Positions 8,333 to 43,347 of a DNA stretch of 59,314 bases are shown piece after piece; within the stretch, counting starts at the first letter, position 1; every line of letters begins with the position of its first letter. The notes below the pieces were generated by a model. That model did no database searches. It saw only the letters and a list, made by a program, of their open reading frames with translations, and was not told the origin of the DNA. The stretch spans positions 1 through 59,314 of the forward strand of contig CAZTHB010000002.1 in NCBI GenBank assembly GCA_964613485.1, in the 5' to 3' direction. The position numbers were made by a program, and so were the translations under genes. The DNA is from an uncultured Candidatus Saccharibacteria bacterium (GTDB lineage Bacteria > Patescibacteriota > Saccharimonadia > CAILAD01 > GCA-016700035).

Positions 8333-8341
8333 AAGCGCCTC

Positions 8342-8623
8342 CTATTGACCAAATATCTGTGTATTATCGCCACACTTCTCTGGCGCATCGATACATTTCT
8401 GAGGAGTCGAGTAATCGCTCAGCTTTTTCAGCTCATCCAACTTAGCGGCTGCTTTTGGCTGACTGGTGTCGGCTTCGTCAAGCGGCACATTTACAGGATT
8501 AGGAATGCTTACTTTGATACCGCTGTCCTTTGGCGCAGGTGCTAGTTGTGAATAAAGCAGAACACCCGCTGCGACAAATATCGCAATCGCTATTACTAGT
8601 CCGATCATATCGCGTTTTTTCAC
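8342..8623 (-). CDS. Small membrane-anchored protein of the pilus operon (unknown function)
   Basis: It has an N-terminal TM segment (IGLVIAIAIFVAAGVLLY) and a C-terminal Cys pair (QKCIDAPEKC). Its GTG start overlaps the pilO stop (GTGA) and is preceded by a GGAG SD. Confidence 0.5.
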   Translation of the reverse strand: MKKRDMIGLVIAIAIFVAAGVLLYSQLAPAPKDSGIKVSIPNPVNVPLDEADTSQPKAAAKLDELKKLSDYSTPQKCIDAPEKCGDNTQIFGQ

Positions 8624-9339: not shown

Positions 9340-9341
9340 AG

Positions 9342-9977: not shown

Positions 9978-9978
9978 A

Positions 9979-22895: not shown

Positions 22896-23939
22896 CTACC
22901 TGAGAGGCGTTGCGCTATCGAGCGTAAATCGAACGCTTTGTTGCGCTTCACCAAGCCCACCCAGCACACCGAGGTCTTGGTTTTGAACTGCCTTATTCGT
23001 AAGGGCAACGCTCGTGATCCCGGCATTATTTGTGTTAAGCACGAGTTCCTTTGCACTAGTAAAAGTCTGAGGAGCATCAGGCTGAACACTCCCCCGAAAG
23101 ACTTCTTTGCCATCAGACTGCACCACCAAGGCAATTGGCGCGCTTTTCGCGCTCACCACTACCTTCACCTGGTCTGACGCACTGACCGCTACCGTAGGGC
23201 TCACCGTACTACTCGCCTCTTTCGCTAGAGTCGCCGTAATGACATAGGTTTGCGTGGCGATTTTACCCAGACGGTTCTTGGCCGACAAACGAATCTCATT
23301 ACGACCATCAACAAGCGCGATTCTTTCTCGGAAGCTACCATCCGCAGCCACTAATACTGCCGAATCATTAATAAACAGATCAGATCCACCATCAACTCGA
23401 CCAGATACAAAACCATAATTAGTCGTGACGCTCGTCGCTTCATTCGTATTAAGACTCAAGCGAGGTGGCGCCGATAAAACCGCAACTTGCCAACCGATAT
23501 ACAGTACAACCACCGCGAACATAGCCACGATCGAGATCAAAAAAAACGTACGCGGGGTGATGATCATTTGCTTCGAGCGAATCGGCTTGAGGCCGAACTT
23601 GACTGCCCCACCTTGCTTACGCCGCGACTGCCGGCGCATCTCGCGCTCCGAAGCCCGTTCACGCTCGTAGATCTTCATAATTGGCTTAGGGTCAAGTCCA
23701 AGATAGTCGGCATAATTACGCACATAGCCGCGTGAATAAACATCATCCTTCAGCTCGTCGTAATCACCGGACTCAATAGCCTCAAGATAACTCAATCGAA
23801 TACGCGTCGCTTGTTCGGCCTCGCTGAGACTAAGCTCCAAGCTTTCACGACGATGCTTGAGAATCGTAGCTAGCGGCTGGTTTGCGCTACGACGCGATCG
23901 AGGAACTGGTGCAGTAGATTCAATCGGGCGTTCATTCAT
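22896..23939 (-). CDS. RodZ-like membrane protein (N-terminal XRE-type HTH, TM, C-terminal extracellular domain)
   Basis: It has the HTH LSLSEAEQATRIRLSYLEAIESGDYDEL and the TM FFLISIVAMFAVVVLYIGW. I prefer the start at 23939 (MNERPIE...), which overlaps the ftsK stop within ATGAATGA. Confidence 0.7.
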   Translation of the reverse strand: MNERPIESTAPVPRSRRSANQPLATILKHRRESLELSLSEAEQATRIRLSYLEAIESGDYDELKDDVYSRGYVRNYADYLGLDPKPIMKIYERERASEREMRRQSRRKQGGAVKFGLKPIRSKQMIITPRTFFLISIVAMFAVVVLYIGWQVAVLSAPPRLSLNTNEATSVTTNYGFVSGRVDGGSDLFINDSAVLVAADGSFRERIALVDGRNEIRLSAKNRLGKIATQTYVITATLAKEASSTVSPTVAVSASDQVKVVVSAKSAPIALVVQSDGKEVFRGSVQPDAPQTFTSAKELVLNTNNAGITSVALTNKAVQNQDLGVLGGLGEAQQSVRFTLDSATPLR

Positions 23940-26376: not shown

Positions 26377-27078
26377 ATGGCCGCTCAAATTATCACGATC
26401 GATGGCCCGGCTGGGAGTGGCAAATCGACGGCTGCAGAAGCAGTCGCCAAACATCTTGGCGGCATCTGCCTCAATAGTGGCAGTGTATATCGAATCTTGA
26501 CCGTGCTCTACATCCGCCGTAAAGCATTGCAACCCTCGCTCACTGTTGAGGATTTCGCTGAATCCCTCAACGAGATGACCGATATCGCGATCACCGATGG
26601 TGTCGCCACGCACGCCTTCGGACGTCCCATCAGAATGACGGAACTCAAGACGCGTGAGGTCAATATCGAGATCTCCCCCGTTTCGTCAAACCCCCGCGTG
26701 AGAAAATGGGTCAACCGAAGACTGCACCAGTATGCCAACTTCATGATCAAGAACTTCTTTGTCACAATCGTCTGCGAAGGCCGCGATGCAGGGACGGTCA
26801 TCTTCCCCGAAGCAGCCCACAAGTTTTATCTGACAGCGCATGTCGATATTCGTGCAGCACGCATTGGTGAAACACCTGAGCAGGTCACAACACGAGACGA
26901 AATAGACCATGGCAAGCTGGTTGGCAAGCTGATTCGCGAGAGCCAAGCAAGAGCCCTCGGCTACAGCATCATCAACTCCTCAGACCTTGATATCGAAGAA
27001 GTCGTCGATCTAATCTTCTTGGTCATCGATGGCGAGTTCGATGAGTTGCTGCGTACGCTAGGCAAGCTTCCCTCATAA
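26377..27078 (+). CDS. cmk: Cytidylate kinase
   Basis: It has the P-loop ITIDGPAGSGKST and the length and layout of Cmk. Confidence 0.8.
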   Translation: MAAQIITIDGPAGSGKSTAAEAVAKHLGGICLNSGSVYRILTVLYIRRKALQPSLTVEDFAESLNEMTDIAITDGVATHAFGRPIRMTELKTREVNIEISPVSSNPRVRKWVNRRLHQYANFMIKNFFVTIVCEGRDAGTVIFPEAAHKFYLTAHVDIRAARIGETPEQVTTRDEIDHGKLVGKLIRESQARALGYSIINSSDLDIEEVVDLIFLVIDGEFDELLRTLGKLPS

Positions 27079-27130: not shown

Positions 27131-29209
27131 TTACGTTTCGATCACTACAGGAAGTACAATCGGATTGCGCTTCGTAACTTTGAAGAGGTAGTTTGCAATC
27201 TCGTCGCGCATGCGTGTCTTGATAATCAGTGAGTTGGCTGGCATTGCTTTATCACGCTTATCAAAGATATTTTGCACGATCTGACGACTCTTCTGTACAA
27301 GTTCGACATTATCTTTCATATAGATAAAGCCACGCGAGATGATATCTGGACTCGTAGCGAGCTTGCCGGTCTTCTTGTCGACCGTTGCAACCACCATAAA
27401 TACTCCACTTTCGCTCATAGCGAGGCGATCCTTCAAGACTATCTCTTGTACGTCACCGATGCCAGCACCGTCGATCAATACAGATCCGGCCTGTACTTTA
27501 GGCCCTTCTTTGACCGAACCTTTTTCATCTACAACGAGAGTCTGGCCATCTTCAATCACAAAGACATTGCTGTCGGCGATGCCTTCAGTCAGCGCGATCG
27601 CGGCGTTATGGAACATATGGTGCATCTCACCGTGGATCGGCAGGTAATACTTCGGTCGTACAAGCCGAATCATTTCTTTAATCTCATCGACACTCGCGTG
27701 CCCCGAGGTGTGCATGGTGCCAAGATCATCAATCGAAGCGGTGGCTGGCTGGTAAACATATGTTCCCCATCGGAACAGATTATCTACCATACCCCAAACC
27801 GACTTCTCATTACCTGGAATAATAGAAGCCGAGAGCACAACAACATCGGAGCCCTTAAGCTTCACGTCGCGGTGATCACCAGTACCCATACGCTGCAAGG
27901 CCGAGAAGGTCTCACCTTGCGAGCCAGTTGATACTACGGCCAATTGACCGTCGGAGTATTTCTCCATATCACGAGCCTTGATGAGTAGTCCGGCTGGGAT
28001 CTTCACATAACCGAGCTTGACTGATAACTCGAGGTTGTTGAGCATACTGCGACCCACCACAACCAGCTTGCGCTTTGACTTTGCGACTGCGTCGATAATG
28101 ATTTGCATACGGGTAATCTGACTTGAGAAAGCAGCAATAATTACGCGCTTGTTGTAGTTGCGCACGAAAATCTCATCGATCGTATCGACAATCTCACTCT
28201 CCGAAGCACTACGGCCAGTCTTTTCACAGCTGGTCGAATCACACATCAGCATTAAGACGCCTTCATCACCGATCTGCTTAAGTCGTTCTTTGTCAGAGGG
28301 TTTCCCATCAATTGGGTTCTCTTCAAAGCGCCAATCACCGGTATTTATAACTGTACCGACTGGTGTGCGAATCACGAGAGAACAAGCATCCGGAATAGAG
28401 TGCGTGATGCGCAAGAATTCGATATTAAACACACCAAGCTGGATGCGATCATGCTTATCTTGATCCACAATGTGCAGCTCTGGCTTAAATGGAAGTTTGT
28501 ATTCCTCAAGCTTGCGCTCGATAAACTTAATCGTAAACTTCGCAGCATAGATCGGAGCCGGAATCTTCGGCAGGAGAAATGGAATACCCCCAACGTGGTC
28601 TTCGTGGGCGTGCGTAATGAGGATTCCACGAATCTTATGCTTGCGCTGTTCGAGATACGTCACATCTGGAACCACGAGATCGATACCTGGCTGGTCTTCG
28701 CCCGGGAAGGAGAAGCCCATGTCCATAATAATAATGTCGTCTTCATACTCCAACGCCATGATATTTTTACCGATTTGATTCAGTCCACCAAGTGGAATGA
28801 TCTTGAGCTTACCAGCATCAATCTTGCTCACTCCAGGGATACTCACTGCAGCCTGTTTGGACGAGCCATTCGTGTTAAAGCTCCCCGTGACGAACGTCTG
28901 AGGGCCCTTTGGCATGCGCATGCGAGGCGGGCGGCCAAGTCCACCACGCTCCTGACGCTGGCCATTACGGCTATTGCCGCCGCCGTTATTATTGCGACCA
29001 CGCTGACCTTGACTCTGTTGGCTACCGCGACCTTGTGTGCGATTCTGAGCGCCGCGTCCTTGCTGCTGACGCTGCGAGCGATCACTTGCGCGCGCCTGTT
29101 CGCTACCCTGTTTTGACGCAGGCGTACGGCGAGTTGTTGATTCTGATTGTACCGAAGGTTTCGGCATGTCGTCGGCCGACAGCGGCCGACTTGTTAAATT
29201 ATCTGACAT
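27131..29209 (-). CDS. rnj: Ribonuclease J with a ~130-aa Arg/Gly/Gln-rich N-terminal extension
   Basis: It has the metallo-beta-lactamase motif ITHAHEDHVGG and the beta-CASP and C-terminal domains. The N-terminus is low complexity (QQQGRGAQNRTQGRGSQQSQGQRGRNNNGGGNSRNGQ). Confidence 0.9.
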   Translation of the reverse strand: MSDNLTSRPLSADDMPKPSVQSESTTRRTPASKQGSEQARASDRSQRQQQGRGAQNRTQGRGSQQSQGQRGRNNNGGGNSRNGQRQERGGLGRPPRMRMPKGPQTFVTGSFNTNGSSKQAAVSIPGVSKIDAGKLKIIPLGGLNQIGKNIMALEYEDDIIIMDMGFSFPGEDQPGIDLVVPDVTYLEQRKHKIRGILITHAHEDHVGGIPFLLPKIPAPIYAAKFTIKFIERKLEEYKLPFKPELHIVDQDKHDRIQLGVFNIEFLRITHSIPDACSLVIRTPVGTVINTGDWRFEENPIDGKPSDKERLKQIGDEGVLMLMCDSTSCEKTGRSASESEIVDTIDEIFVRNYNKRVIIAAFSSQITRMQIIIDAVAKSKRKLVVVGRSMLNNLELSVKLGYVKIPAGLLIKARDMEKYSDGQLAVVSTGSQGETFSALQRMGTGDHRDVKLKGSDVVVLSASIIPGNEKSVWGMVDNLFRWGTYVYQPATASIDDLGTMHTSGHASVDEIKEMIRLVRPKYYLPIHGEMHHMFHNAAIALTEGIADSNVFVIEDGQTLVVDEKGSVKEGPKVQAGSVLIDGAGIGDVQEIVLKDRLAMSESGVFMVVATVDKKTGKLATSPDIISRGFIYMKDNVELVQKSRQIVQNIFDKRDKAMPANSLIIKTRMRDEIANYLFKVTKRNPIVLPVVIET

Positions 29210-29249: not shown

Positions 29250-29858
29250 CTAAGTTATTTCCTGAAGGATTTCTGGAATTTTGGCAAAATCTTCCTTCAG
29301 TGTTTCGCGCATTCCACCATTATAAAGGGCAGCTGCAGGATGGTAGAGCGGCAAGAAGACTTGAGCGCGATTTTTGCCGGCATGCGCGTAGGTGTGCTTG
29401 ATAGGCTGACCGTGCGCCTGGCCAATTTTCTTCTCGGGGAAGAATACCGACATCGAGTGGCGCCCGAGAAAGACTACCAATTTTGGCTGAATGATTTCGA
29501 TTTGCTCTAGGAGGTACGGGAGACAGGCCTGAATCTCATCGGGGAGCGGGTCGCGATTATTGGGCGGACGATATTTCACAACATTCGTGATGAATACGTC
29601 CTCGCGCGTCATTCCGATAGACTCAAGCATTTCTGCCAGAAACTTACCGGACGCGCCAACAAACGGTCGGCCTTGACGATCTTCCTCTGCCCCGGGGGCT
29701 TCACCCACAAACACGATGTCTGCTTCTGGGTCACCCTCGCCGGGCACAGGATTGCTTACTGATTTACATAATTCGGTACAAACCTCACAAGAGGCAATGC
29801 GAGCGGCGATTTGATCAAGTTTGGTTTGTCTTTGAACACGTTCGTCGCCCGCCATCAT
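29250..29858 (-). CDS. Family 4 uracil-DNA glycosylase
   Basis: It carries VFVGEAPGAEEDRQGRPFVGASGKFL plus an N-terminal Cys cluster (CEVCTELC). Confidence 0.9.
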   Translation of the reverse strand: MMAGDERVQRQTKLDQIAARIASCEVCTELCKSVSNPVPGEGDPEADIVFVGEAPGAEEDRQGRPFVGASGKFLAEMLESIGMTREDVFITNVVKYRPPNNRDPLPDEIQACLPYLLEQIEIIQPKLVVFLGRHSMSVFFPEKKIGQAHGQPIKHTYAHAGKNRAQVFLPLYHPAAALYNGGMRETLKEDFAKIPEILQEIT

Positions 29859-29862
29859 GTAC

Positions 29863-32004
29863 CTAGTTGGATTGAGCAGCTTTTTTGCTCAAATTAAACC
29901 TTCCTCGGTCGTCTTTCTCGAGCAGCTTCACCTTTATCTTGTCACCTTCCTTCAGTTCATCACTTACTTTTTCAACACGATGTTCGGCTATCTGGCTGAC
30001 ATGAACGAGTCCTTCACGACCCGGCATAAACTCTACAAAGGCACCAAACTCCATGAGTTTTGTAACCGTGCCGTCATATATCTTGCCTACTTCTGGCTCA
30101 GCGGTAATTGCCTCAATCCATGTTTTAGCCTGCTCGGCCTTCTCTGCGTCTTCGGAATAAATCATCACCAAGCCAGAGTCCTCGATATCGATTTGAGTAC
30201 CAGTCTCCTCGGTGATCTTGCGAATAGTCTCACCCCCCTTACCGATAACTTCCTTGATCTTATCAGGATTAATCGTAAGCTTTGTAATGCGTGGTGCATA
30301 AGGAGACATTTCAGAACGTGCTTCAGGAAGGATCTTCATCATTTCTCCCATGATGTGAGCCCTGCCTTCCTTTGCCTGCGCAAGCGCATCGCGCATGATT
30401 TCTACCGTAATACCCTTGACCTTAATATCCATCTGAAGAGCGGTGATGCCTTCACTCGAACCAGCAACCTTAAAGTCCATATCTCCGGCAAAGTCTTCGG
30501 CACCCTGGATATCCGAGAGAATAATGTACTTACCAGGATTAGCGTGATCAATCACTAACCCCATCGCAATTCCAGAAATCGGGCGCTTCAGTGGTACGCC
30601 AGCATCCATCAGCGACAAGGTTGAACCACAAACTGATGCCATGCTAGTCGAGCCATTTGAGCTCAAGATCTCCGACACGACACGTATTGCATACGGGAAA
30701 TCTTCCATTGTAGGGATCATCGGCTCGAGTGCACGTTCAGCTAAAGCACCGTGCCCAATTTCGCGACGACCTGTACCGCGCAACGGTCGCGCTTCACCGG
30801 TTGAATATGGTGGGAAGTTGTAGTGATGCATATAACGCTTACTCGTATCCTCTTCCATCGTGTCAATCAACTGTGCAAAGCTCGTCGGTGCAAGCGTCGT
30901 CAATGTCAATGCTTGAGTAGTTCCGCGCGTAAAGATCGCCGAACCGTGCGTGCGTGGCAATACACCCGCAGCACCAGAAATCGGACGGATTTCAGTAGTC
31001 TTGCGCTGATCAGGTCGCTCTCCATCTTCGAGAATAGCCCGACGAATCTCATTATCTATAGCTTTCGTAAAGGCTTCTTTGACCTTCCCCGCAGAAAATC
31101 GTTCTTTGTCGTCTTCCATCTCGGCAGGAAGCGGACCAAACTCCGCCAGCACCGCTTCACGAAGCTCATTAATCGAATCCTGACGCTTTAGGCCATCTGT
31201 GTGGCGAACATATTGTCCGAGCTTGCCATCAAGAAACTGCTCGATCTTCTCAGTAAGCTCTTGATCCGCCTTAAACAGATCAAACTTCTGAGACACAACG
31301 CCCATTTCTTTGACCATCTGCTCTTGGAGCTCAATTACAGGGCGCCAAGAATCAATCGATAGCTGCAAGGCTTCGAGCATTGTCTCCTCGCTCACTTCCT
31401 CCGCACCAGCTTCAACCATCATGATGGCATCCTTGGTACCTGCAACCGTCAGATTGAGCGTACTAGCATCTTGTTCGCTATTCGTGGGAAATGGGACGAG
31501 TTTTCCGTCTATCTGACCAATACGAATACCGGCCACGGGGCCCTCAAACGGCGCGCCCGTTAGCATAAGTGCGCTCGAGGCAGCAATGATGCCGATAATG
31601 TCTGGCTCATGCTCCATATCGACTGATAGTGGCATAACAACGACTTGGACGTCATTACGGTAACCCTTAGGGAAAAGCGGGCGAATCGGGCGGTCTATCA
31701 AGCGACAAGTCAAAATCGCCTTCTCGCTCGGACGCCCTTCACGCTTAATGAAACGGCTACCCGAGATCTTGCCAGCTGCATACATACGCTCTTCATAATC
31801 AATGAGTAGTGGAAAGAAATCCTGATCGGGCTTAGGCTCCGCTGCAACCACTGCGGATGCAAACACAACCGTATCGCCATAACGTACAGTTACGGCGCCA
31901 GTCGCTAAGAACGCGAGGTTCCCTGTTTCAATAGTTAGTTTTTTTCCTGCAAATTCAGCTTCGAAGGTGGCTTGCTTGCCACCAAACGGATGAATAATAT
32001 TCAT
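29863..32004 (-). CDS. pnp: Polyribonucleotide nucleotidyltransferase (PNPase)
   Basis: The 713-aa protein has two RNase PH domains, a KH domain (GKGGETIRKITEETG) and an S1 domain (GKIYDGTVTKLMEFGAFVEF). Confidence 0.97.
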   Translation of the reverse strand: MNIIHPFGGKQATFEAEFAGKKLTIETGNLAFLATGAVTVRYGDTVVFASAVVAAEPKPDQDFFPLLIDYEERMYAAGKISGSRFIKREGRPSEKAILTCRLIDRPIRPLFPKGYRNDVQVVVMPLSVDMEHEPDIIGIIAASSALMLTGAPFEGPVAGIRIGQIDGKLVPFPTNSEQDASTLNLTVAGTKDAIMMVEAGAEEVSEETMLEALQLSIDSWRPVIELQEQMVKEMGVVSQKFDLFKADQELTEKIEQFLDGKLGQYVRHTDGLKRQDSINELREAVLAEFGPLPAEMEDDKERFSAGKVKEAFTKAIDNEIRRAILEDGERPDQRKTTEIRPISGAAGVLPRTHGSAIFTRGTTQALTLTTLAPTSFAQLIDTMEEDTSKRYMHHYNFPPYSTGEARPLRGTGRREIGHGALAERALEPMIPTMEDFPYAIRVVSEILSSNGSTSMASVCGSTLSLMDAGVPLKRPISGIAMGLVIDHANPGKYIILSDIQGAEDFAGDMDFKVAGSSEGITALQMDIKVKGITVEIMRDALAQAKEGRAHIMGEMMKILPEARSEMSPYAPRITKLTINPDKIKEVIGKGGETIRKITEETGTQIDIEDSGLVMIYSEDAEKAEQAKTWIEAITAEPEVGKIYDGTVTKLMEFGAFVEFMPGREGLVHVSQIAEHRVEKVSDELKEGDKIKVKLLEKDDRGRFNLSKKAAQSN

Positions 32005-34365: not shown

Positions 34366-34429
34366 ACATCGGTCTCGCGCCCACCCCATCTAAGTCGGGC
34401 GCCAACAGCATAAACAAGGATTGTAATGA

Positions 34430-34774
34430 ATGCCAATTATTAAATCAGCTATGAAGAGAGTTCGTCAGCAAGCCAAGCGCCGTTCACGCAACCTGGCTGC
34501 AAAGCGAAACATCAAGGCTTCGAGCAAGCAGACACTTGCTGCAATAGCAACGAATGACATTAAGGCCGCCCAAGAATCGCTTAAACAGGCTATTTCGCAG
34601 ATCGATAAGGCTGCAAAGAAAGGCACCTTGCACAAAAACACCGCCGCACGCCGCAAGAGCTCCCTTACCCGTTCATATAACTCTGTCAGCGATACTGCTT
34701 ACGGCACAGATAAAGCGGTCAAAAAAGCAGCAAAACCGGCTGCAAAAAAGGCTCCCGCTAAAAAAGCTGCCTAG
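34430..34774 (+). CDS. rpsT: 30S ribosomal protein S20 (with Lys/Ala-rich C-terminal tail)
   Basis: It begins MPIIKSAMKRVRQQAKRRSRNLAAKR..., a typical S20 N-terminus. Confidence 0.9.
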   Translation: MPIIKSAMKRVRQQAKRRSRNLAAKRNIKASSKQTLAAIATNDIKAAQESLKQAISQIDKAAKKGTLHKNTAARRKSSLTRSYNSVSDTAYGTDKAVKKAAKPAAKKAPAKKAA

Positions 34775-34785
34775 GCTCGCTAGCC

Positions 34786-35706
34786 TCACGCCCGCGAAGC
34801 AAGACTTAGCACCAGATCAGTCATGGCCTGGTGCGGTTTTTTTATTCCTGACTTTATATCCACATCCGCCAATAAGAGATCCCGATAGCTTGCTGCGAGG
34901 CTTTCGGCGCTATAGCCACGAGATTGTTGTTTTGCCTTTGATGCTGCGTAAGGCTTGATATTGCATTGCTTTAGCTCCTCAGGGGTAGCGTCGTGAAAAA
35001 CCATTGTCATAACTCGAAAATGCCACTGTAGAGTTGCTAGAATCTGCTGCTCATTCGCTCCGATCCGCATAAGCTCATCATATAACCGTAGGCTACGCTG
35101 AGCATCGCCAGACTGAATGGACGCTATAAGATCAAAAACGGAGCTCGTCGGATCAGTCTGCACGACATCAAGGATGCGCTCTCGAGTGATTTGCTCACCG
35201 CCTGCAGCCAACTTATCGAGCTCATGATGTAACCGCCACTGATCACCAGCCACGCGCTGCACGAGTAATTGAGCAGCAGCTCGGTCTAGAAGTGCATCCC
35301 TGCGACTCGCCTCTTGCAGGAGCCAGGTAACTAATTGAGGCTCCGACAATGCGTCATGCAGCTTGGCAGAAGGGTGTGCGGCCAGCGTCTTATATAACTT
35401 GGAACGCTTATCCATACCGCGTCCGTCTAATACTGCGACCGTCGAATCTGGCACCTTCTCGAGTAATGTCATCAAAGCATCCCCTTCAGTAGTCACCTGC
35501 CCAAGAGAGCGAACCATTACCAGGCGATGAGAATAAAACATTGGTACCGCCAAGAGCTGTTGCTCAAGATATGTGAGTGATGATTCGGCCAAGTCACATT
35601 CAACCATTTCAAGCGCATCGGCGTATTTGCGCGCATACTGCTGTTTAAGCTTCGACATATGCTGCACTATCGCATAGTCATTACTCCCGCCAAGGAAAAC
35701 AATCAT
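34786..35706 (-). CDS. holA: DNA polymerase III delta subunit
   Basis: The 306-aa protein has the helical C-terminal pattern of HolA. It is coupled with mutM by a 4-nt overlap. The assignment rests on overall pattern only. Confidence 0.65.
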   Translation of the reverse strand: MIVFLGGSNDYAIVQHMSKLKQQYARKYADALEMVECDLAESSLTYLEQQLLAVPMFYSHRLVMVRSLGQVTTEGDALMTLLEKVPDSTVAVLDGRGMDKRSKLYKTLAAHPSAKLHDALSEPQLVTWLLQEASRRDALLDRAAAQLLVQRVAGDQWRLHHELDKLAAGGEQITRERILDVVQTDPTSSVFDLIASIQSGDAQRSLRLYDELMRIGANEQQILATLQWHFRVMTMVFHDATPEELKQCNIKPYAASKAKQQSRGYSAESLAASYRDLLLADVDIKSGIKKPHQAMTDLVLSLASRA

Positions 35707-36584
35707 AGCTTAGGTTCCGGCTGACAGCGAGGACAAATATGGGTACCTCGCCCCGCTACTCTTAGCTTCACTATGGTTGCTTCACAACGCTCGCAGGATT
35801 GCCCCTCGCGCCGAAACACTTTAGCGAATGTTAGATAGCTCCCCTTTTTGCCCTCTGCATCAACGTAATTTTTATCGCTTGATCCCCCTAGAGATATCGA
35901 CAACTGCATCACCGATCGCAAAGCTTGATAAAGCCTACGAAGTTTGATCGTACTCACTTTTCCTACGAGCGTCGCGGGATGAATGCGCGCAGCATATAGC
36001 CCTTCATCGGCATAAATATTCCCTACTCCAGCCATGACCGACTGATCCATGATCGCTGCCTTAATGCTCGTCCGTTTACGACGCTGTAAACGCTCGCGAA
36101 AAAGATCAAATGTAAAATCCACATCCAGCATTTCAGGCCCCAACTTGGCCATAAAGCTGTCTTCTGGCACACGGGCAGTCTCGACTAATTTCATCCAACC
36201 AAACTTGCGTTGATCATTGAAGAATAACTTCGAACCATCTTCAAAAGACACAGTGACGCGCGTACTACGGTCAGGAAGGCGGCCAATCAGACTATCTGTC
36301 GGATGCCCGCCACCAAAGCCTTCCCCCACTTTAGGACGAAACACCAACTGTCCCGTCATCTTCAAATGTACGATGAGCGAATAGCCCGTATCCAACTGAA
36401 TAATAAGGCCTTTGCCACGACGATCAATATCTGTGACTTGTGAGCCGATAAGCTTAGTATCCACTAATTCGGGGTCATTCGGGAAACCCTTGAGGGTGTC
36501 TGTCTCGACGGCAACGACGGTCCGGCCCGGAAGCATGCTCAGTAAACCAAGTCGAATTGTTTCGACTTCAGGAAGTTCCGGCAT
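35703..36584 (-). CDS. mutM: Formamidopyrimidine-DNA glycosylase
   Basis: It has the N-terminus MPELPEVE, an H2TH region and a C-terminal zinc finger (CERCEATI...CPRCQ). Confidence 0.9.
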   Translation of the reverse strand: MPELPEVETIRLGLLSMLPGRTVVAVETDTLKGFPNDPELVDTKLIGSQVTDIDRRGKGLIIQLDTGYSLIVHLKMTGQLVFRPKVGEGFGGGHPTDSLIGRLPDRSTRVTVSFEDGSKLFFNDQRKFGWMKLVETARVPEDSFMAKLGPEMLDVDFTFDLFRERLQRRKRTSIKAAIMDQSVMAGVGNIYADEGLYAARIHPATLVGKVSTIKLRRLYQALRSVMQLSISLGGSSDKNYVDAEGKKGSYLTFAKVFRREGQSCERCEATIVKLRVAGRGTHICPRCQPEPKL

Positions 36585-36602
36585 GCTCTTCCCCCTGCAG
36601 GA

Positions 36603-39359
36603 TCACTTCATTTCTCCCCAGTTCTTCCCGACAGCTTCCCCTACTTCGATTGGTACAGCAAGCTTAATCACCTGCTCCATAGTTTCCTTGAGCAAGTCCT
36701 TAACCTCATCGACTAGGCGATCATCACATTCAACAATCAATTCGTCATGAATTTGCAAAATCATATGCGCTTCACCATGCAAACGACCTAATCTTGGTGC
36801 CAGCTGAATCATCGCTAATTTCATCATATCGGCTGCTGTACCCTGAAGAGGCATGTTCACAGCCTGCCTTTCGGCAGCAGATCGAACAATATAATTACTC
36901 GACTTAACATCGGGGCACGGGCGTCGTCGGCCAAACAATGTTTCGGTGTACCCCTCTTCATGGGCTTGCTTCTTAAGAAGCTGAATATAGTCCGCAACCC
37001 CTTTTCGGATTTCGAAATATCTATCGATAAAAGCCTTACTCTCCTCGTATGACATACCTGTCGCGACAGACAAGCCGTGCGTATTCATACCATACAGCAC
37101 GCCGAAGTTTACGGCCTTTGCAGCATAGCGTTGCTCTTTCGTAACGTCCTTCGGGTCAACACCAGCGACTAATGCCGCGGTCAGAGTATGGATGTCTACC
37201 CCAGACTTGAAGTCCTTGATCATTGGCTTGTCATCAGACATTGCAGCCGCTAGACGCAGCTCGATCTGACTATAGTCGGCCGACACAAAAGTCTTACCCT
37301 TATCAGCAATGAAGCCTTTGCGAATCTCACGCCCAAGTGGTGTACGTACTGGGATATTTTGTAAGTTTGGATTATTACTCGACAGCCGCCCAGTCTGCGC
37401 AATGGTTTGCTGATAACTTGTATGCACGCGCCCCGTCTTCGGCTGTACAAGTTTCGGTAGCGAATCGACATATGTGCTCTTCAACTTTGAGACTTCACGG
37501 TATTCAAATATCAAATCAATGATTGGGTGCTGACCCCGCAATTTTTCAAGCTCACTAGCGGCAGTGGAGGCCCCTCCGCTCTTTACTTTTTTCAAGCCCT
37601 CGCCTTCAATTTTCAACTTATTAAACAAAATATCCTTGAGCTGCTGTGTCGAGTTGATATTAAACTCCTCACCGGCGTGCTTATAGATCGCCTCTATCGT
37701 TGTGGTCAAGCGCTTATCGAGCTGCTTAGAGAAATGCGAGAAAAATGTCACATCTAGCTTCACGCCAGTCAGCTCAACATCCCCAAGCACAGGAATAAGT
37801 GGCCACTCGAGCTCTTCGGCAACTTCATCGAGTTTACCAATATTCTTGAGCTCCTTGCTCAGACGCTCGTACAATCGCCAAGCAATATCCGCGTCTTCCG
37901 CAGCATACTTGACTGCTTCACCGATCGGCACCTGATCAAAGGTCTTTTGATTTTTCCCTCGTGCGCCAATTAACTCGGTAATCTCGATCATCTCAAGACC
38001 CAACTCGGCGAGCGCCAAGCCCGATAAAGTCTGTGCTCGCCCCATCGGATTAATCAAAAAAGCCGCCACCATGGTGTCAAATACGATCCCCTGTATCGTC
38101 ACACCAGCACATTTGAGGATCTGATAGTCATATTTGATATTATGGCCGACCTTACCGATGGTAGCGTTCTCGAGTACTGGCCGCAGCGCATCGAGAACGA
38201 CAGACACGCTTAGTTGCTCTCCTTCCGCATGACCGACCGGAATGTAATAGGCTTCGCCCTCCTTCCAGGCAAGTGAGATGCCAACCAGCTGAGCCGCAAC
38301 CGGCTCGACCGATGTAGTCTCGGTATCAATCGAGAAGACCTTCTGTTTGTTAAGCTTCGCAACCAACTCATCCAGCTGCTCTTGGGAAGTAACACCCTCA
38401 TACTTTGCAGACTTCAAGTGTGATCGCAGTCGCTCGTGATCCCTCGCATCAACGTCATATATCTCATCAAAAAGATTCTTCTGCTGCCCGACTTCACTCT
38501 GTGGCAACTTCGCAATCAACGATCGAAACTCAAGCTTGTGCAGGAGCTGCACGACCTTATCTCGGTCATACCTATGTAAGCGCGCGTCTTCAAGCTCAAA
38601 ATCACATGGCACATCGCGAACGATGCGCGACAGCTCAAGCGAACGATAGGCATCTTCTTTTCCTGATTCGAGCTTGGCACGCAAGGCCGGCTTGAGCTCG
38701 TCAAGGTGATCATAGATACCATCGAGCGTCTTATACTTCACCACCAGCTCAGCGGCCGTCTTTTCGCCTACTCCCTTTACACCAGGGATGTTATCGCTCG
38801 TGTCCCCTTTGAGAGCTTTCGTCACCAAGAACTCTTCTGGCGTCACCCCATAACGATCCTGCACTGCTGCCGGATCATATAGCACCGTATCAGAGAATCC
38901 TCGCTTGAGCGTATATATGCTGACATGTTCATCTACCAGCTGCAACTCATCCATATCTCCGGTCACAATCACGACTTCGTGCTGCTTCTTGAGCCGCTCT
39001 GCAAGTGTGCCGATCACATCATCAGCTTCATACCCTTCTACACCGACGACCGGGATTTCAAATGCCGCCAGCAGATCCTTCGTCACATCAAACTGCGGCA
39101 CGAGATCTTTATCAGTCTCTTTACGTGTCGCTTTATACTTCTCATCAAGATCATGGCGAAATGTCTTGCCGGGCATGTCCCAAGCCACGACGACGTACTC
39201 TGGCTTGAGCTCCTTGATGGCATTAAGGAGCATCATCGTAAAGCCATACACTCCATTAGTCGGCACACCATCTTTGGTACTTAAAAAAGGAATAGCGTGA
39301 AATCCGCGGTGCAATAAAGCGTGGCCGTCGAATATAGCGACTCGTGATCTAGTGCTCAT
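36603..39359 (-). CDS. polA: DNA polymerase I
   Basis: The 918-aa protein has 5'-nuclease, 3'-5' exonuclease-like and polymerase domains (SADYSQIELR, QIHDELIVE). Confidence 0.97.
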   Translation of the reverse strand: MSTRSRVAIFDGHALLHRGFHAIPFLSTKDGVPTNGVYGFTMMLLNAIKELKPEYVVVAWDMPGKTFRHDLDEKYKATRKETDKDLVPQFDVTKDLLAAFEIPVVGVEGYEADDVIGTLAERLKKQHEVVIVTGDMDELQLVDEHVSIYTLKRGFSDTVLYDPAAVQDRYGVTPEEFLVTKALKGDTSDNIPGVKGVGEKTAAELVVKYKTLDGIYDHLDELKPALRAKLESGKEDAYRSLELSRIVRDVPCDFELEDARLHRYDRDKVVQLLHKLEFRSLIAKLPQSEVGQQKNLFDEIYDVDARDHERLRSHLKSAKYEGVTSQEQLDELVAKLNKQKVFSIDTETTSVEPVAAQLVGISLAWKEGEAYYIPVGHAEGEQLSVSVVLDALRPVLENATIGKVGHNIKYDYQILKCAGVTIQGIVFDTMVAAFLINPMGRAQTLSGLALAELGLEMIEITELIGARGKNQKTFDQVPIGEAVKYAAEDADIAWRLYERLSKELKNIGKLDEVAEELEWPLIPVLGDVELTGVKLDVTFFSHFSKQLDKRLTTTIEAIYKHAGEEFNINSTQQLKDILFNKLKIEGEGLKKVKSGGASTAASELEKLRGQHPIIDLIFEYREVSKLKSTYVDSLPKLVQPKTGRVHTSYQQTIAQTGRLSSNNPNLQNIPVRTPLGREIRKGFIADKGKTFVSADYSQIELRLAAAMSDDKPMIKDFKSGVDIHTLTAALVAGVDPKDVTKEQRYAAKAVNFGVLYGMNTHGLSVATGMSYEESKAFIDRYFEIRKGVADYIQLLKKQAHEEGYTETLFGRRRPCPDVKSSNYIVRSAAERQAVNMPLQGTAADMMKLAMIQLAPRLGRLHGEAHMILQIHDELIVECDDRLVDEVKDLLKETMEQVIKLAVPIEVGEAVGKNWGEMK

Positions 39360-39367
39360 GAATGTTA

Positions 39368-40177
39368 TTATACCTGTTTTTCAGATAAGGAGGAGTCTGG
39401 GCTGGCCAACATCTGCAAGCGCAAGATTAGAAAGAGCTGACGCATACTATCTGCAATCTGCTGCGAGTGAATCACCGTACCGAATACTTCTTGCCCGTAA
39501 CTGAGATATGCGACCTTATCGGCGTAGATATTTATCTCTACCGGCATATTGTATGCTTCTGGGTCATAAAATGTATGTTCAATCAAATGTACTTTATGTT
39601 TAGCGGGTGTTTTTGGCAGCGTAAACCCTTTAGGAGTCAGTGCTTGAACCTTAATCCCCTTACGCACTCGAGTTGCGACAAAATCATCCAGATAATCTGA
39701 CCCAAGAAAATCATGCTGATTCGGCGAGATGATCAGCATAACATCCGCCTTTGTTTGTAGGATGTCATCATAAATATCCTTAAGACCTTCAATACCTTGG
39801 TAATGACGCACGGCTGGCTGCTCTGTTAACTGATGATATCTCTGTGTGAGCGTAGGTAGCAATGATTTAAAACGATATTCGTTATTGAGCAAAATATTTC
39901 TTCGCCTCTCAGCCAGCATTTCGATCTGAATCGGATTAGCTGGCAAGTAGCTCAATCGCTTACCTATCTTTGATTTTGTGATGAGCTGCAACTGTTCAAG
40001 ACGTACAAGAATAGAATACGCATTGGTGCGAGTCTCCCCGAGCCTCTCTGTAATGAGAGCCGGGGTGATTTCACCAATATCTAGAGCCAGTAAATATGCT
40101 GCCGCTTGATTCTGCTTGAGCCCAAGGCCCTCTAAAATACTGATATCACTTGATTGTTGTAGATTTGTCGATTTCAT
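39368..40177 (-). CDS. TrmB-family transcriptional regulator
   Basis: It has an N-terminal winged HTH (LGLKQNQAAAYLLALDIGEITPALITERLGETRTNAYSILVRLEQL). It is the first gene of the trmB-like/polA/mutM/holA string. TATAAT lies 9 nt upstream of the ATG. Confidence 0.75.
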   Translation of the reverse strand: MKSTNLQQSSDISILEGLGLKQNQAAAYLLALDIGEITPALITERLGETRTNAYSILVRLEQLQLITKSKIGKRLSYLPANPIQIEMLAERRRNILLNNEYRFKSLLPTLTQRYHQLTEQPAVRHYQGIEGLKDIYDDILQTKADVMLIISPNQHDFLGSDYLDDFVATRVRKGIKVQALTPKGFTLPKTPAKHKVHLIEHTFYDPEAYNMPVEINIYADKVAYLSYGQEVFGTVIHSQQIADSMRQLFLILRLQMLASPDSSLSEKQV

Positions 40178-40523
40178 TTCGACATAATTATAGCAAATTT
40201 TTACCTGTTATTCTAGTACTTTGCCATTCTATATTGACGATTAATGCTAATTACTCCATACTGTGTCCATCAAAACAAACAGCACCTACTAGTCACACAG
40301 AGTCCACCGCAAAGTCCTACAGGCAGATGAATGAATCACCTCTCCGTAAGACTTTACGGCCTTCACATAGACACCAATGATCTCGACAGCAGCTTCGGAA
40401 CTGCTGCCGGGATCCCAAAGATCTCGGGTGTGAAAACCCGGCATAATTCCGAAAACCGGACTCATACAGCAACGGCCCAGTGACCGACTCACTGAAGAGC
40501 ACCTACCAATACAAGGAGAAATC

Positions 40524-41066
40524 ATGGCCCGAGAGGGTTTCATCAGCCAGGACGACCGTCGCAAGGTCGCCTCAGACACAATCTGGGGCATGTCCCGCGG
40601 ACTGTTCGTCATCGTGGCAGTCATCATCGCAGCCTCGGTGATCGGCGCAGCCTCCTGGGGCATCAGCGTCGCCACCAGCGGCCCGCGTGGTGCCGGTGAC
40701 GTCGTGCGGGAACGCAACGACGCCAACAACCGGATCAGCGCTCAGGCCTTCTTCGAGGACACGTACGCCACCATCAAGGCGCAGGACCTCAAGTTGACCG
40801 ACGCGCAGCAGGCACTGGACGAGTTCCTGGCCACCACACCGCAGCCCACCAGCTCCGACATGGTCCAGCTGCAGCTCTACACGCAGCAGCTCAAGGCCAA
40901 GCAAACGACGGTGACCGGTCTCACCCAGATCTGTCAGGATGCCGTCGCGCGCTACAACGCCGAAGCCCGGAAGACCATCCGTGCCGAGTGGCGCGCTGAA
41001 GACCTGCCGTACCAGATCGACGCCACGTCGAGCTCGGACGAAACGGACTGCCAGCCGGCAGCCTGA
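40524..41066 (+). CDS. Hypothetical type II membrane protein (N-in, single TM, coiled-coil-like ectodomain) encoded in the high-GC island
   Basis: An AAGGAG SD lies 5 nt upstream of the ATG. The TM is LFVIVAVIIAASVIGAASWGISV. Coding periodicity is strongly G/C-ending. Confidence 0.7.
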   Translation: MAREGFISQDDRRKVASDTIWGMSRGLFVIVAVIIAASVIGAASWGISVATSGPRGAGDVVRERNDANNRISAQAFFEDTYATIKAQDLKLTDAQQALDEFLATTPQPTSSDMVQLQLYTQQLKAKQTTVTGLTQICQDAVARYNAEARKTIRAEWRAEDLPYQIDATSSSDETDCQPAA

Positions 41067-41138
41067 TCAAATTCGAGTCAACCCATCCACACCCCGGGGA
41101 GGGGCACCCTGCCCCTCCCATCAAGCAGAAAGAGACCC

Positions 41139-41735
41139 ATGAAGAACCTGAAGAAGTACCTCATCCTGCCCCTACTCGTCGCATGCATCGGCTTCACCGC
41201 CGTCGCCTGCAGCAGCGGCCCCAAGGAAGACTCCGCCCAAGGAGCCACCCAGAAGGTCACCGAGGAGTACAGCAAGGCAGCGGTCGAGGCTGTTCCCTAC
41301 CCGCTCCAGGAGATGAAGGAGGGCGGCTGGCTCGAGCGCATGAACTTGCGCGAGCGCCTCATCCGCTACTCCAAAGCTGACAAGATCAGCTACATCTACC
41401 TGTTCTCCGGGCAGGGTCAGCTCTTGGCCAACTACACCGTGAAGGGCAAGGTGTCCAACACCAGCTCCCAGATGACCACCGCCCAGACGGTCGACGACTA
41501 CTGCGGATCGGGCAACTACTGCCCGATGGCAATCGACGCCCCGATGGACGACGGTACCTGGGGTCCCTCCGAGGACGCCATCTTCTTCTTCACCACCGAT
41601 GGTGTGATGGTGCAGTGGCCCGGCCTCTACGTCTTGGCCGACGCTCCACTGGACCTCACCACCCAGCCGGTGCTGGTGTACAACACGGGCTCCAAGCCCA
41701 GCTCCGTCGCCGACGAGAAAAACTACGGCGGCTAA
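41139..41735 (+). CDS. Hypothetical lipoprotein encoded in the high-GC island
   Basis: The signal peptide MKNLKKYLILPLLVAC IGFTAVAC SSG has lipobox-like LVAC/AVAC. The mature part contains a Cys pair (DDYCGSGNYC). GC3 is high. Confidence 0.7.
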   Translation: MKNLKKYLILPLLVACIGFTAVACSSGPKEDSAQGATQKVTEEYSKAAVEAVPYPLQEMKEGGWLERMNLRERLIRYSKADKISYIYLFSGQGQLLANYTVKGKVSNTSSQMTTAQTVDDYCGSGNYCPMAIDAPMDDGTWGPSEDAIFFFTTDGVMVQWPGLYVLADAPLDLTTQPVLVYNTGSKPSSVADEKNYGG

Positions 41736-41799
41736 CCGAGCCATTGGACAATCGAGAGCCATTTGTCTCTCGTCTGCCACTCGAGCACTCTCTCGAGTA

Positions 41800-41825
41800 C
41801 CCACCCCTTGCAACATAGGGGTGGG
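41800..41825 (+). terminator. Stem-loop at the right end of the island (9-bp GC-rich stem, no U-tract)
   Basis: The stem-loop is cccacccct-tgcaacat-aggggtggg. A second hairpin, actcgag-cactct-ctcgagt, precedes it at 41779-41798. Confidence 0.4.
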
Positions 41826-41836
41826 ATTACCCATAT

Positions 41837-41865
41837 TTGAATAATACTAAGAACACATAGATAAT
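41837..41865 (+). promoter_or_regulatory. Sigma-70-type promoter placed for a leaderless transcript of the 99-aa gene
   Basis: TTGAAT (41837-41842) is followed by a 17-nt spacer and GATAAT (41860-41865). The ATG follows after 6 more nt at 41872. Confidence 0.5.
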
Positions 41866-41871: not shown

Positions 41872-42171
41872 ATGACAATAATCGAATCTGAAAATCGAGA
41901 ACGGGACGAAGCGGAAGAAATGACCACTTACCAGGAAACGGTTGGCCGAGACACCCCGGAGGGGCGCGAGGGACTCAGAGACGCCCTGCAGGGTTTGCGC
42001 GACTTAGCGGCTCAGCATGAATCTGGCGCAATCGATGAACCCGACTGGAGAATTCCTGAAGAAACAAAAGCAACTGGCCGGAGAGGAATTGCTGAAGCGC
42101 GTGCTGCGCTTAAGGCCACAGATGAACGGCGCGCGGCGCGTGAAGCCGCTAGCGAAGAAGAGACAAACTAA
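41872..42171 (+). CDS. Hypothetical small, highly charged (acidic, Arg/Glu/Ala-rich) protein
   Basis: The 99-aa ORF has its own promoter and a strong terminator. I recognised no motif. Confidence 0.5.
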   Translation: MTIIESENRERDEAEEMTTYQETVGRDTPEGREGLRDALQGLRDLAAQHESGAIDEPDWRIPEETKATGRRGIAEARAALKATDERRAAREAASEEETN

Positions 42172-42198
42172 AAAAGAGCCCCTAGAGGCTCTTTTTTA
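42170..42198. terminator. Bidirectional intrinsic terminator between the 99-aa gene and rpoD
   Basis: The sequence is aaaaaAGAGCCcctagaGGCTCTttttt. Confidence 0.75.
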
Positions 42199-42219
42199 AC
42201 ATTACCGCTTAACAACTTC

Positions 42220-43347
42220 CTACTGGAGGTAGTCTTTAAGACGCTTTGAATCCTTGTGCTTACGCAGCTTCGCGAGTGCCTTCGCTTCGATCTGACGAAT
42301 GCGCTCTCGTGTCACGCCGAATTCTTGCCCCACTTCTTCGAGAGTGTGACTCTTACCATCCTCAAGACCGAAGCGCATACGCAAGATCTTCTGTTCGCGA
42401 GGAGTCAGGAGTGCCAGCGTATCGTTAATGTGCTCCTTGAGAAGCTCATAGGTCGCAGCGTCAACTGGAGAGACCGAATCTTGATCTTCGATAAATTCTC
42501 CGAGAGTCGAGTCTTCATCTTCACCAACCGCCGCATCAAGCGAAGTCGTGTCTTGGCTGATCTTCTGAATATGGAGCACCTTCTCGACATCCATTTCCAT
42601 TTCTTTTGCCAGCTCCTCTGGACTTGGTTCACGTCCAAGTTCGCTCGTCAGGCGACGCTGCGTACGAATAAGTTTATTGATTGTCTCTACCATGTGGACT
42701 GGGATGCGAATCACACGTGCCTGGTCTGCTATCGCACGCGTAATCGCTTGACGAATCCACCACGTAGCGTAAGTGGAGAATTTAAATCCCTTAGTGTAGT
42801 CAAACTTCTCTACGGCACGCAAAAGGCCTGTGTTACCTTCCTGGATGAGATCAAGTAAGTCCAAACCACGCCCAATGTACTTCTTGGCAATCGAGACCAC
42901 AAGACGCATGTTAGCTTCAGCGAGAGCGTCCTTTGCGGACTTGTCGCCCTGCTCTATACGCTTAGCCAACGAGACTTCTTCTTCTGCATTGATCAGTGGT
43001 ATTTTACCGATTTCGCGAAGGTACAAACGCACTGAGTCATCAGCGATATCTTTGATCGCTTCTTCACTGACCGCATTCTCAACATCTTCTTCTGGTTCGG
43101 TCTGCCAAATAAGCTTGTCTTTTTGGTCGACGACTTCGATCCCGGCATCGATCAAGGCCGAGTATAAATCATCCAATAGATCTACTTGTTCCTCTGCTTG
43201 AGGGATTGCTTTAAGTACTTCCTGCTGAGTAACGAACCCTTGTTCGCGTCCCTTGGTCACCAGTCGCTCAACTGCTGGCTTGAGTTCTTCAGGGATATTT
43301 GGCTCGAGATTACGAGCTTCTTCTGGTTGAGCTTTTTTGCGTGGCAT
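42220..43347 (-). CDS. rpoD: RNA polymerase primary sigma factor (sigma-70 family)
   Basis: It has regions 1.2-4.2, including [40 protein letters not shown] and the region 4 HTH. Confidence 0.97.

Follow-up and report, generated by a model that had tools for sequence, protein, structure and literature searches.

Superinfection-exclusion proteins such as T5 Llp, phi80/N15 Cor, Streptococcus TP-J34 Ltp, and lactococcal Sie2009 are small phage-encoded lipoproteins or bitopic membrane proteins that exclude phage. Their genes lie outside the structural and lysis modules, form self-contained units that can function from a bacterial chromosome, and are patchily distributed and allelically diverse. 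The spanins Rz/Rz1 pair a type II, N-in protein that has a coiled-coil ectodomain and a conserved Cys with a lipoprotein encoded just downstream. Flexible islands, such as O-antigen and phage-receptor loci, hold alternative unrelated cargo between conserved flanks, and phage morons are self-contained units whose composition differs from that of their surroundings. We compared these systems with a locus in a 59,314-nucleotide stretch of DNA from an uncultured Candidatus Saccharibacteria bacterium (contig CAZTHB010000002.1 of assembly GCA_964613485.1, positions 1–59,314; hereafter the window). Positions 40510–41750 encode a membrane protein, p1, and a lipoprotein, p2. The explanation that fits best is a two-gene envelope cassette supplied by the shared genes of GC-rich, actinophage-like phages. 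We are confident of the origin and anatomy that this explanation assigns to the cassette, the anti-phage function that it borrows by analogy is tentative, and the explanation taken whole is evenly poised.

The composition of the locus was analyzed with a sliding-window G+C profile along the window and with the G+C content of third codon positions (GC3) computed for each open reading frame (ORF) of at least 150 residues, plus the smaller orf99. G+C climbs from 0.40–0.47 to 0.56–0.66 between ~40350 and ~41850 and then drops back. The interval 40261–41825, which a first-pass annotation made from the sequence had singled out as a high-GC island, has a G+C content of 0.608 compared to 0.488 for the rest of the window. 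The maximum of the 1.5-kb background windows is 0.532, giving the island a z-score of ~6.5. GC3 is 0.851 for p1 and 0.894 for p2, and it ranges from 0.39 to 0.62 in the remaining 47 ORFs and orf99. The next-highest ORFs, at 22136–22807 and 26377–27078 (0.62 and 0.61), represent a mild rise that stays far under the island. The annotation's hand count of 69 G+C in 40591–40690 is exact, and its claim that third codon positions are mostly G or C agrees with the GC3 values. Its claim that long antisense shadow ORFs are unique to the island does not hold; others lie at 27272–27931, 28400–29116, 29857–30558, and 42256–42858. The 180-residue p1 was found on 16 contigs from several sequencing projects, and the six contigs displayed (runs SRR29476927, SRR29476923, ERR15459718, SRR11567528, SRR27472032, and SRR11567540) are 100% identical to the window at both junctions. 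The recurrence of identical junctions in the 16 contigs argues against misassembly and confirms the high-GC island as a real, nonartefactual feature.

A phage contig identifies the type of replicon that carries such a pair at its own composition. This contig, L011 (JAGOCC010000022), is binned in an Acidimicrobiales metagenome-assembled genome (MAG) and is 65.6% GC throughout. Its genes are small and codirectional, and their PHROG matches include GP88 (1e-59), phrog_24053, a clamp loader, an ATP-dependent ligase, and a CII-like regulator; relatives of GP88 are found mostly in mycobacteriophages. L011 has 1282 bp in common with a Saccharibacteria chromosome, L013 (~45% GC; background GC3 0.30–0.43), at 89% nucleotide identity. 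Besides p1 and p2, the common segment includes just 58 nt before p1 and 15 nt after p2, and the sequences on either side of it are unrelated. None of the remaining L011 phage genes occurs in the Saccharibacteria loci examined. The L011 copy is also the closest GC-rich relative of the window pair, with 66% amino acid identity. These data establish sharing between phage and epibiont at the level of the cassette.

The pair occurs in at least five Saccharibacteria chromosomal contexts, always as a GC island, and its GC3 is 0.85–0.93 in each of the five. The first context is the interval between a TrmB-like gene and rpoD in the window and in a contig with an 88% identical TrmB, judged by the neighboring locus tags IT415_02940 and IT415_02950. 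In the second (L007 to L010) the pair lies between PGM and other genes on one side and an acyltransferase gene and GroES/EL on the other. The third (L013) has the order pair–NfeD–flotillin–SecA, the fourth (L161) Exo_endo_phos–pair–Lactamase_B–Band_7–NfeD, and the fifth (L162) places the pair between NusB and LeuRS with other genes intervening. The GC3 of the pair is 0.72–0.93 versus a background of 0.30–0.60 in L007, L009, L017, L013, L020, L023, L161, and L162, and the GroES/GroEL neighbors of the pair have a GC3 of 0.42–0.56.

The same contigs hold further islets with a GC3 of 0.70–0.95 among genes of ~0.35–0.60: L009 16210–18784; L162 3549–4055, 5551–6615, and 10868–12195; L161 5015–7210 and 11711–15280; L007 8144–9040; and L013 11027–13094. 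They include NfeD–flotillin/Band_7 operons and several genes for small hypothetical proteins. This pattern suggests widespread import of GC-rich DNA into these Saccharibacteria; we did not detect a match between the other GC-rich islets and the viral or Actinomycetota loci examined. L013 also carries a ~130-nt repeat (80% identity) at 10727–10856 and 13194–13317, upstream of the NfeD–flotillin operon and of secA, respectively. A shorter look-alike lies upstream of p1, and the repeat may be a shared leader or regulatory element.

The wider distribution of the family points to phages. Adjacent p1–p2 genes are found in GenBank Arthrobacter, Microbacterium, and Curtobacterium phages at 30–41% identity, and p2 without p1 in Rhizobium, Tenacibaculum, and Fusobacterium phages. 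The pair is g28–29 of Microbacterium phage Floof, amid nucleotide-metabolism genes 3.5 kb past the endolysin gene g21, and g65–66 of Arthrobacter phage Hestia, between the genes for SSB and glutaredoxin. In both phages this is the early/DNA-metabolism region. A p2 relative was present on 112 IMG/VR contigs, and p1 lay directly upstream in 37 of the 79 examined; nearly all of these 37 are 50–71% GC, and the composition of the pair equals that of its contig. Among species-representative genomes the closest copies (65–92%) belong to Saccharibacteria MAGs, with a GC3 of 0.72–0.93 over a background GC of 0.38–0.56. Actinomycetota copies (Spongiactinospora, Actinocrinis, Micromonosporaceae, and Actinospica) are 36–48% identical and have the native ~70% GC. 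The sole Actinomycetota copy that could be checked, Spongiactinospora locus L024, is identical to an IMG/VR provirus contig, L076. Copies of p2 from the candidate phyla radiation (CPR), DPANN, haloarchaea, and Firmicutes have native composition and no detectable p1. A few plasmids carry p2, including Streptosporangium and haloarchaeal ones, and relatives are found in DPANN and haloarchaeal genomes and megaplasmids (L031, L032, L041, L043, and L045; plasmid matches H93, H95, and H99). The p2 family presumably crosses the divide between bacteria and archaea via viruses. These data identify phages as the origin of the family and place it at home in high-GC, Actinomycetota-associated replicons (actinophages, Actinomycetota genomes, and viral contigs), as the first-pass annotation anticipated. 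In the genera that it had named, Actinomyces, Schaalia, Corynebacterium, and Cutibacterium, no matches to the pair were seen. We found no paper describing this gene pair.

Alignment with related Saccharibacteria divides the island into native and foreign parts (Table 1). L153–L156, whose PolA and RpoD are 87% and 98.7% identical to the window proteins, align to the window at 34425–40509, at 41751–41845 (87.5%), and from 42218 onward. Homology with L153 stops at 40509 and restarts at 41751, which sets the edges of the cassette at 40510 and 41750. The G+C content of this narrowed cassette is 0.630 compared to 0.452 on the leader side (40178–40509) and 0.446 in the 3′ flank. The interval proposed by the first-pass annotation therefore keeps a foreign core and loses its two ends, the 5′ leader and the terminal hairpins, which are native and conserved in relatives.

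Table 1. Features of the locus between the TrmB-like gene and rpoD (window coordinates)
Feature	Position	Strand	Description
TrmB-like helix-turn-helix regulator gene	39368..40177	-	Native left neighbor, divergent from the slot; Pfam TrmB 3.7e-6; GC3 0.43
Promoter-like site	40234..40262	+	TTGACG-17-CATACT by consensus scan; both hexamers kept in L153, L073, and L072
5′ leader	40263..40509	+	Native, ~250 nt; homology to L153 (Band_7 cargo) up to 40509; GC 0.452
GC-rich foreign cassette	40510..41750	+	Shine-Dalgarno sequence, p1, 72-nt spacer, p2, ~15 nt; ~1.2 kb
p1	40524..41066	+	180-residue bitopic membrane protein; predicted N-in, transmembrane segment at about residues 25–48, helical-hairpin ectodomain
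Recombination breakpoint in p1	40640..40660	+	End of the transmembrane segment
p2	41139..41735	+	198-residue lipoprotein; lipobox ...AVAC24
Three-hairpin array	41746..41825	+	Native slot end without a U-tract; fold -40.7 kcal/mol, z -4.7
orf99	41872..42171	+	Native right neighbor; small, highly charged acidic protein; GC3 0.47; no family match
rpoD (sigma-70)	42220..43347	-	Native right flank; Pfam Sigma70 regions 1.1 to 4

The cargo between the conserved flanks differs among relatives, which identifies the interval as a replacement hot spot. L153–L156 carry a gene for a 341-residue Band_7/SPFH protein (GC3 0.82) in place of the pair. L073 (PolA 81%, RpoD 91%) has a diverged pair, with amino acid identities of 49% for p1 and 45% for p2 and a GC3 of 0.65–0.68 versus 0.38–0.53. 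At 63% PolA identity, L157 carries a diverged pair, and L159 a small transmembrane protein gene with a Band_7 gene (GC3 0.71). A metagenome scan with the TrmB protein, run to find an empty site, recovered a single short contig, L072. Its flanks are 100% and 97% identical to those of L073, which assigns the two to the same species, and its cargo is another pair, encoding a ~97-residue protein and a 192-residue lipoprotein. Relatives of this lipoprotein occur in Vibrio phages. Phages also encode relatives of the SPFH cargo, 39 of the 95 matching records being Streptomyces phages; haloviruses carry them too, annotated as lipoprotein or prohibitin. We did not detect an integrase, a transposase, a tRNA, or direct repeats at the slot, where the neighbors are the TrmB-like gene, orf99, and rpoD, and neither the leader nor the 3′ flank was found repeated at other window positions. 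The comparison of this interval in relatives, one of the checks proposed in the first-pass annotation, thus returned a syntenic slot with changing cargo: a diverged pair, another lipoprotein pair, or an SPFH gene.

The slot itself appears to supply signals for expression. The TrmB-like gene is syntenic in L073, L153, L157, and L159, and its product may regulate the slot. The promoter-like site and the leader are conserved in all four close loci, and the leader alignment contains long invariant blocks across close relatives with differing cargo. Compensatory changes replace the leader hairpin CAGCAGC..GCTGCTG with CAACAC..GTGTTG, and the z-score of the leader fold is −2.9. The consensus fold of five relatives was unconvincing with respect to covariation, and distant leaders failed to align. 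Rfam returned no match for the locus, the leader included, or for the whole window, and a tRNA scan together with Rfam found no tRNA or rRNA in the window. One possibility is that the leader is a cis-regulatory RNA not yet described; another is that it holds the operator for the TrmB-like regulator. The hairpin array at the other end is 87.5% identical in L153, above the identity of the flanking protein genes. L072 and L073 have it too, with compensatory changes in the second stem, and its presence does not depend on the cargo. The array is therefore native, and it is a candidate terminator, RNA-stability element, or recombination anchor. The first-pass annotation had used the U-tract-less hairpins and a Shine-Dalgarno sequence before each gene as marks of foreign DNA. 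The hairpins exist, but they are common to relatives with other cargo, and these arguments do not distinguish foreign from native DNA. The AAGGAG sequence precedes p1 (40513–40518), and p2 is preceded by GAAAGAG instead.

Between the array and rpoD, orf99 is flanked by its own promoter-like site (41837–41865) and by a bidirectional terminator (42167–42200) that the scan places in common with rpoD. Positional homologues adjoin rpoD in L153 (50% identity), L073 (128 residues), and L159. The orf99 product gave nothing above noise in Pfam, NCBIfam, PHROGs, or PADLOC.

Both proteins are predicted to face outward from the cytoplasmic membrane, and neither resembles a described family. There are 35 homologues of p1, and alignment shows a variable cytoplasmic tail, invariant Cys137 and Cys176, and the conserved motifs NRIxAQAFFEDTY and YNAEARKTIR..WRS.DLPYQID. 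The AlphaFold2 (AF2) model of p1 is all-helical (mean confidence score, pLDDT, 82), with helices at residues 11–51, 67–104, and 113–148; this fits the N-in, single-pass protein with a coiled-coil-like ectodomain that the first-pass annotation had described. For p2 it had described a lipoprotein with a Cys pair, and the lipobox Cys24, which lines up with the lipobox of the homologues, and Cys123/Cys130 bear this out. The p2 model (pLDDT 80) has two long helices followed by a seven-strand beta domain, with the motifs YIYL, KGKVS, and IFFFTTDG, and p2 has 119 homologues. A p2 profile search returned 781 clusters at 50% identity, 493 of them at E ≤ 1e-10, all of which are stand-alone proteins of similar size. 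Neither p1 nor p2 matched Pfam, NCBIfam, PHROG, PADLOC, or the sequences and sequence profiles of the PDB, consistent with the earlier statement that they carry no recognized motif. The structure predictions proposed there were made for each protein individually, and Foldseek found no match to either model in the PDB at E ≤ 0.001. The p2 model matched one unnamed entry in BFVD (1e-9).

The p2 gene is overlain on the minus strand by a 220-residue shadow ORF (41172–41834; L001 6649–7311 and L002 3254–3916), and in two of the identical contigs the gene caller picked this antisense ORF. Homology and GC3 identify the plus-strand ORF as the genuine p2 gene. The family is therefore probably under-annotated in low-GC genomes. 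In four distant CPR homologues (P0092, P0094, P0104, and P0110), a prepilin N terminus (PF07963) replaces the lipoprotein signal; judged by these sequences, some CPR may present the p2 domain on type IV pili or pseudopili. The possibility that p2 itself is a type IV pilin or pseudopilin was considered and rejected, given its lipobox, the presence of PF07963 in only 4 of 57 homologues, and no match to a pilin fold.

The sequence of the window p1 is that of a recombinant. From 40524 to ~40640 the window is 78–83% identical to the slot allele of L073 and ~46% identical to L017, and from ~40660 to 41735 it is 83–95% identical to L017, L007, and L018 and ~50% identical to L073. In L017, L007, and L018, which are also from Saccharibacteria, the pair lies at other chromosomal sites. 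The N terminus is accordingly of the slot type, and the ectodomain with p2 resembles alleles that reside elsewhere. Across the p1 family, N-terminal types are shuffled relative to the ectodomain clades. The ratio of nonsynonymous to synonymous substitution rates (dN/dS) is 0.09–0.68 across all comparisons, which places both genes under purifying selection, and p1 evolves faster than p2. Alleles that differ by a synonymous divergence (dS) of 0.8–1.1 retain a GC3 above 0.84, compared to ~0.3–0.6 for the genes of their own genomes. The L023 lineage (GC3 0.72) has accumulated 25 GC>AT versus 5 AT>GC changes, and this A/T-biased decay argues that high GC is not maintained in place. In a neighbor-joining tree, computed without bootstrap or other support values, the Saccharibacteria alleles with L011 nested inside have as their sister group the alleles that L073 and L157 carry in the slot. 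These groups are jointly sister to a large GC-rich clade of viral, Actinomycetota, and actinophage copies, apart from the low-GC CPR and Firmicutes clades. We infer that the alleles diverged for the most part within a GC-rich reservoir and were imported into Saccharibacteria repeatedly, and that the ectodomain and p2 segment of the window is a comparatively recent import or exchange. Acquisition of the pair by phages from Saccharibacteria is compatible with the tree but hard to reconcile with composition.

The locus thus combines a deviating composition, a patchy presence in different contexts, and donor-type replicons in which the same genes have native composition. A mobility gene, which a horizontally acquired island would ordinarily include, is absent, and recombination is inferred in its place. 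A route for entry can be proposed from the lifestyle of the group. Saccharibacteria are naturally competent epibionts of Actinobacteria (PMC10633639), and a prophage of the host Schaalia binds the epibiont TM7x with limited infection (PMC13578794). Genes for PilB/T/C/M and RecA are present in the window. DNA would reach the competent cells from phages that contact the epibiont or inject into it, or from lysed host cells, with abortive injection by host phages as an alternative route; homologous recombination in the conserved flanks or inside p1 would then fix the incoming cassette. The type IV pilus cluster spans 3800–11016 and comprises a PilC-like T2SSF protein, two T2SSE ATPases, one of them with MshEN, and PilM. 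RecA (20946–22016) and FtsK (23932–26085) are encoded near it, an arrangement that fits a competent, pilus-dependent epibiont lifestyle. Gene content, the syntenic contigs, and the named relatives of the cassette all point to Saccharibacteria as the source of the window.

Superinfection-exclusion proteins resemble the pair in lifestyle. Like those proteins, p1 and p2 are small phage-encoded envelope proteins whose genes lie outside the structural and lysis modules, judged here from genome position, and the pair is self-contained, patchy, and allelically diverse. The differences are that p1–p2 have no sequence or fold similarity to the known proteins, form an obligate two-gene module, and occupy a nonprophage chromosomal slot in a phylum other than that of the presumed phage hosts. 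An anti-phage function is suggested by analogy with phage early envelope proteins, by the swapping of cargo within a species, and by the phage homologues of the slot cargoes; we regard it as possible, though somewhat unlikely. In this model p1 and p2 would be located at the external surface of the cytoplasmic membrane, probably in a complex, and would work as in the early program of the donor phages, as a superinfection-exclusion-type surface or membrane barrier. This barrier would block the entry of phage DNA or mask a receptor, and the epibiont would be shielded from the phages of its GC-rich hosts. A further extension, in which the TrmB-like regulator, the structured leader, and the three-hairpin end form a dedicated expression slot into which host-phage envelope modules are swapped by uptake and recombination to give strain-specific protection, is speculative and probably not correct in full.

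Spanins share the gene order with p1–p2, and p1 has the N-in architecture of an i-spanin. This is the only one of four defining features that is present, and the assignment was rejected. The actinophage pairs of Floof and Hestia lie outside the lysis cassette, p2 has a 174-residue folded alpha/beta domain where an o-spanin is a short proline-rich, largely unstructured peptide, and the pair is found by itself in bacterial chromosomes, where it is under purifying selection. An o-spanin needs an outer membrane, and the hosts concerned are monoderm and lack one. The slot resembles flexible islands in its conserved flanks, in its alternative unrelated cargo even within a species (L072 and L073), and in the absence of an integrase or transposase. 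It differs from them in that it is tiny (one or two genes), seems to provide the expression signals, and holds, in every case, GC-rich genes for membrane proteins or lipoproteins that have homologues in phages. The cassette resembles morons in being self-contained, unlike its surroundings in composition, and hairpin-ended, and in that it is shared between replicons without the neighboring phage genes, but in Saccharibacteria it is free of any prophage. In donor-type phages the early/DNA-metabolism position and the phage-matched composition make the pair look like core accessory content rather than a moron.

Several findings weigh against a phage-derived exclusion cassette. Neither protein matches Llp, Cor, Ltp, Sie, or any PADLOC model, and no structural analogue was found; PADLOC-DB v2 gave no match for p1, p2, orf99, TrmB, or the alternative slot cargoes. 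SPFH and NfeD genes repeatedly adjoin or replace the pair, which hints at a role in membrane organization. The position of L011 within the Saccharibacteria clade also fits a phage that acquired the pair from Saccharibacteria or infects them, and its Acidimicrobiales assignment comes from binning. The window lineage has no clear GC>AT decay, with 13 versus 10 changes. Finally, the long presence of the pair in the slot (L157, at 63% PolA identity) indicates a partly vertical history.

The SPFH and NfeD neighbors raise an alternative that keeps the phage origin and replaces the function. The pair could be a membrane-organizing or envelope-remodeling module functionally related to SPFH/NfeD scaffolds, used early by phages to condition the host membrane and kept by Saccharibacteria for envelope homeostasis or the epibiont–host interface. 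An SPFH/Band_7 gene occupies the slot in L153–L156 and L159, the pair adjoins NfeD–flotillin in L013 and Band_7–NfeD in L161, and SPFH proteins are found in phages too. The transmembrane segment and long coiled helices of p1 would suit such a role, and the prepilin-type p2 homologues make display on pili possible. We consider this alternative unlikely. Neither protein resembles SPFH, NfeD, or pilins in sequence or structure, and the absence of an SPFH or NfeD domain by Pfam led us to reject an SPFH/Band_7–NfeD scaffold as the identity of p1 and p2. Co-location may mean no more than that imported GC-rich membrane genes insert at the same hot spots, and the cargo swap between L072 and L073 is more typical of diversifying loci driven by parasites.

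A second alternative reverses the direction of transfer: the pair would be an old resident of Saccharibacteria or Patescibacteria, inherited vertically and exchanged by transformation, from which phages and Actinomycetota acquired it, and its high GC3 would have another cause. The diverged pairs in the same slot of L073 and L157, the single Saccharibacteria group with L011 nested within it, the p2 relatives of native composition in many other CPR phyla, and purifying selection are all compatible with residence. Composition makes this improbable. GC3 values of 0.85–0.93 persist at a dS of 0.8–1.1 in genomes whose other genes are at 0.30–0.60, and the decay in L023 shows that such values are not upheld in place. 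In addition, it is only in phages and Actinomycetota that the pair blends into the composition of its replicon, p1 and p2 are detected together almost exclusively in GC-rich replicons, and the low-GC CPR copies form a separate clade.

The first-pass annotation had read the island as a direct, recent capture from the chromosome of an actinobacterial host, with the surface proteins serving mimicry, exclusion, or attachment. The foreign, Actinomycetota-linked character of the DNA is upheld by its high-GC composition and by the native-composition homologues in Spongiactinospora, Actinocrinis, Micromonosporaceae, and Actinospica, and competence as an epibiont would provide the opportunity. The chromosomal source is not upheld, and we judge this reading quite improbable. 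The chromosomal copies are merely 36–48% identical, the Spongiactinospora copy is inside a provirus, and a phage contig carries the nearest GC-rich relative, whose nucleotide sequence is 89% identical to that of another Saccharibacteria copy. The family is not an actinobacterial surface marker, since it also occurs in Rhizobium, Tenacibaculum, Fusobacterium, and haloarchaeal phages; we found no specific support for mimicry or attachment in a family that phages carry across many phyla. A single recent capture conflicts with the diverged pair already present in the TrmB–rpoD slot of relatives at 63% PolA identity. A published analysis of TM7x and Actinomyces detected no strong signal of horizontal gene transfer (PMC7427843). 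A chimera of epibiont reads with GC-rich host or phage reads would produce the abrupt composition change at both island ends but can be dismissed, given the recurrence of the junctions in contigs from several independent runs, the left junction that falls within an intact ORF with its reading frame kept, and the slot architecture, which relatives share.

The phage-pool origin gives these data a place in the biology of the epibionts. The phage with which targeting of a CPR bacterium was first demonstrated is a host prophage (PMC13578794), and genome comparisons of cultivated Saccharibacteria with their Actinomyces hosts found little sign of gene flow (PMC7427843). The segment common to L011 and L013, together with the five contexts, is sequence-level evidence that epibiont genomes repeatedly acquire genes of GC-rich phages and retain them under purifying selection. 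The pair also brings to light an uncharacterized, moderately sized family of phage envelope proteins that comprises ~780 clusters at 50% identity and lacks a Pfam entry, and it exposes an annotation pitfall in GC-rich islands, where an antisense shadow ORF is called instead of the lipoprotein. The function of the family is directly testable with the easily handled SEA-PHAGES members, Floof gp28–29 and Hestia gp65–66. If the proposed function is correct, the epibiont would have turned superinfection-exclusion genes, taken from the phages themselves, against those host phages which adsorb to its surface or inject into it.

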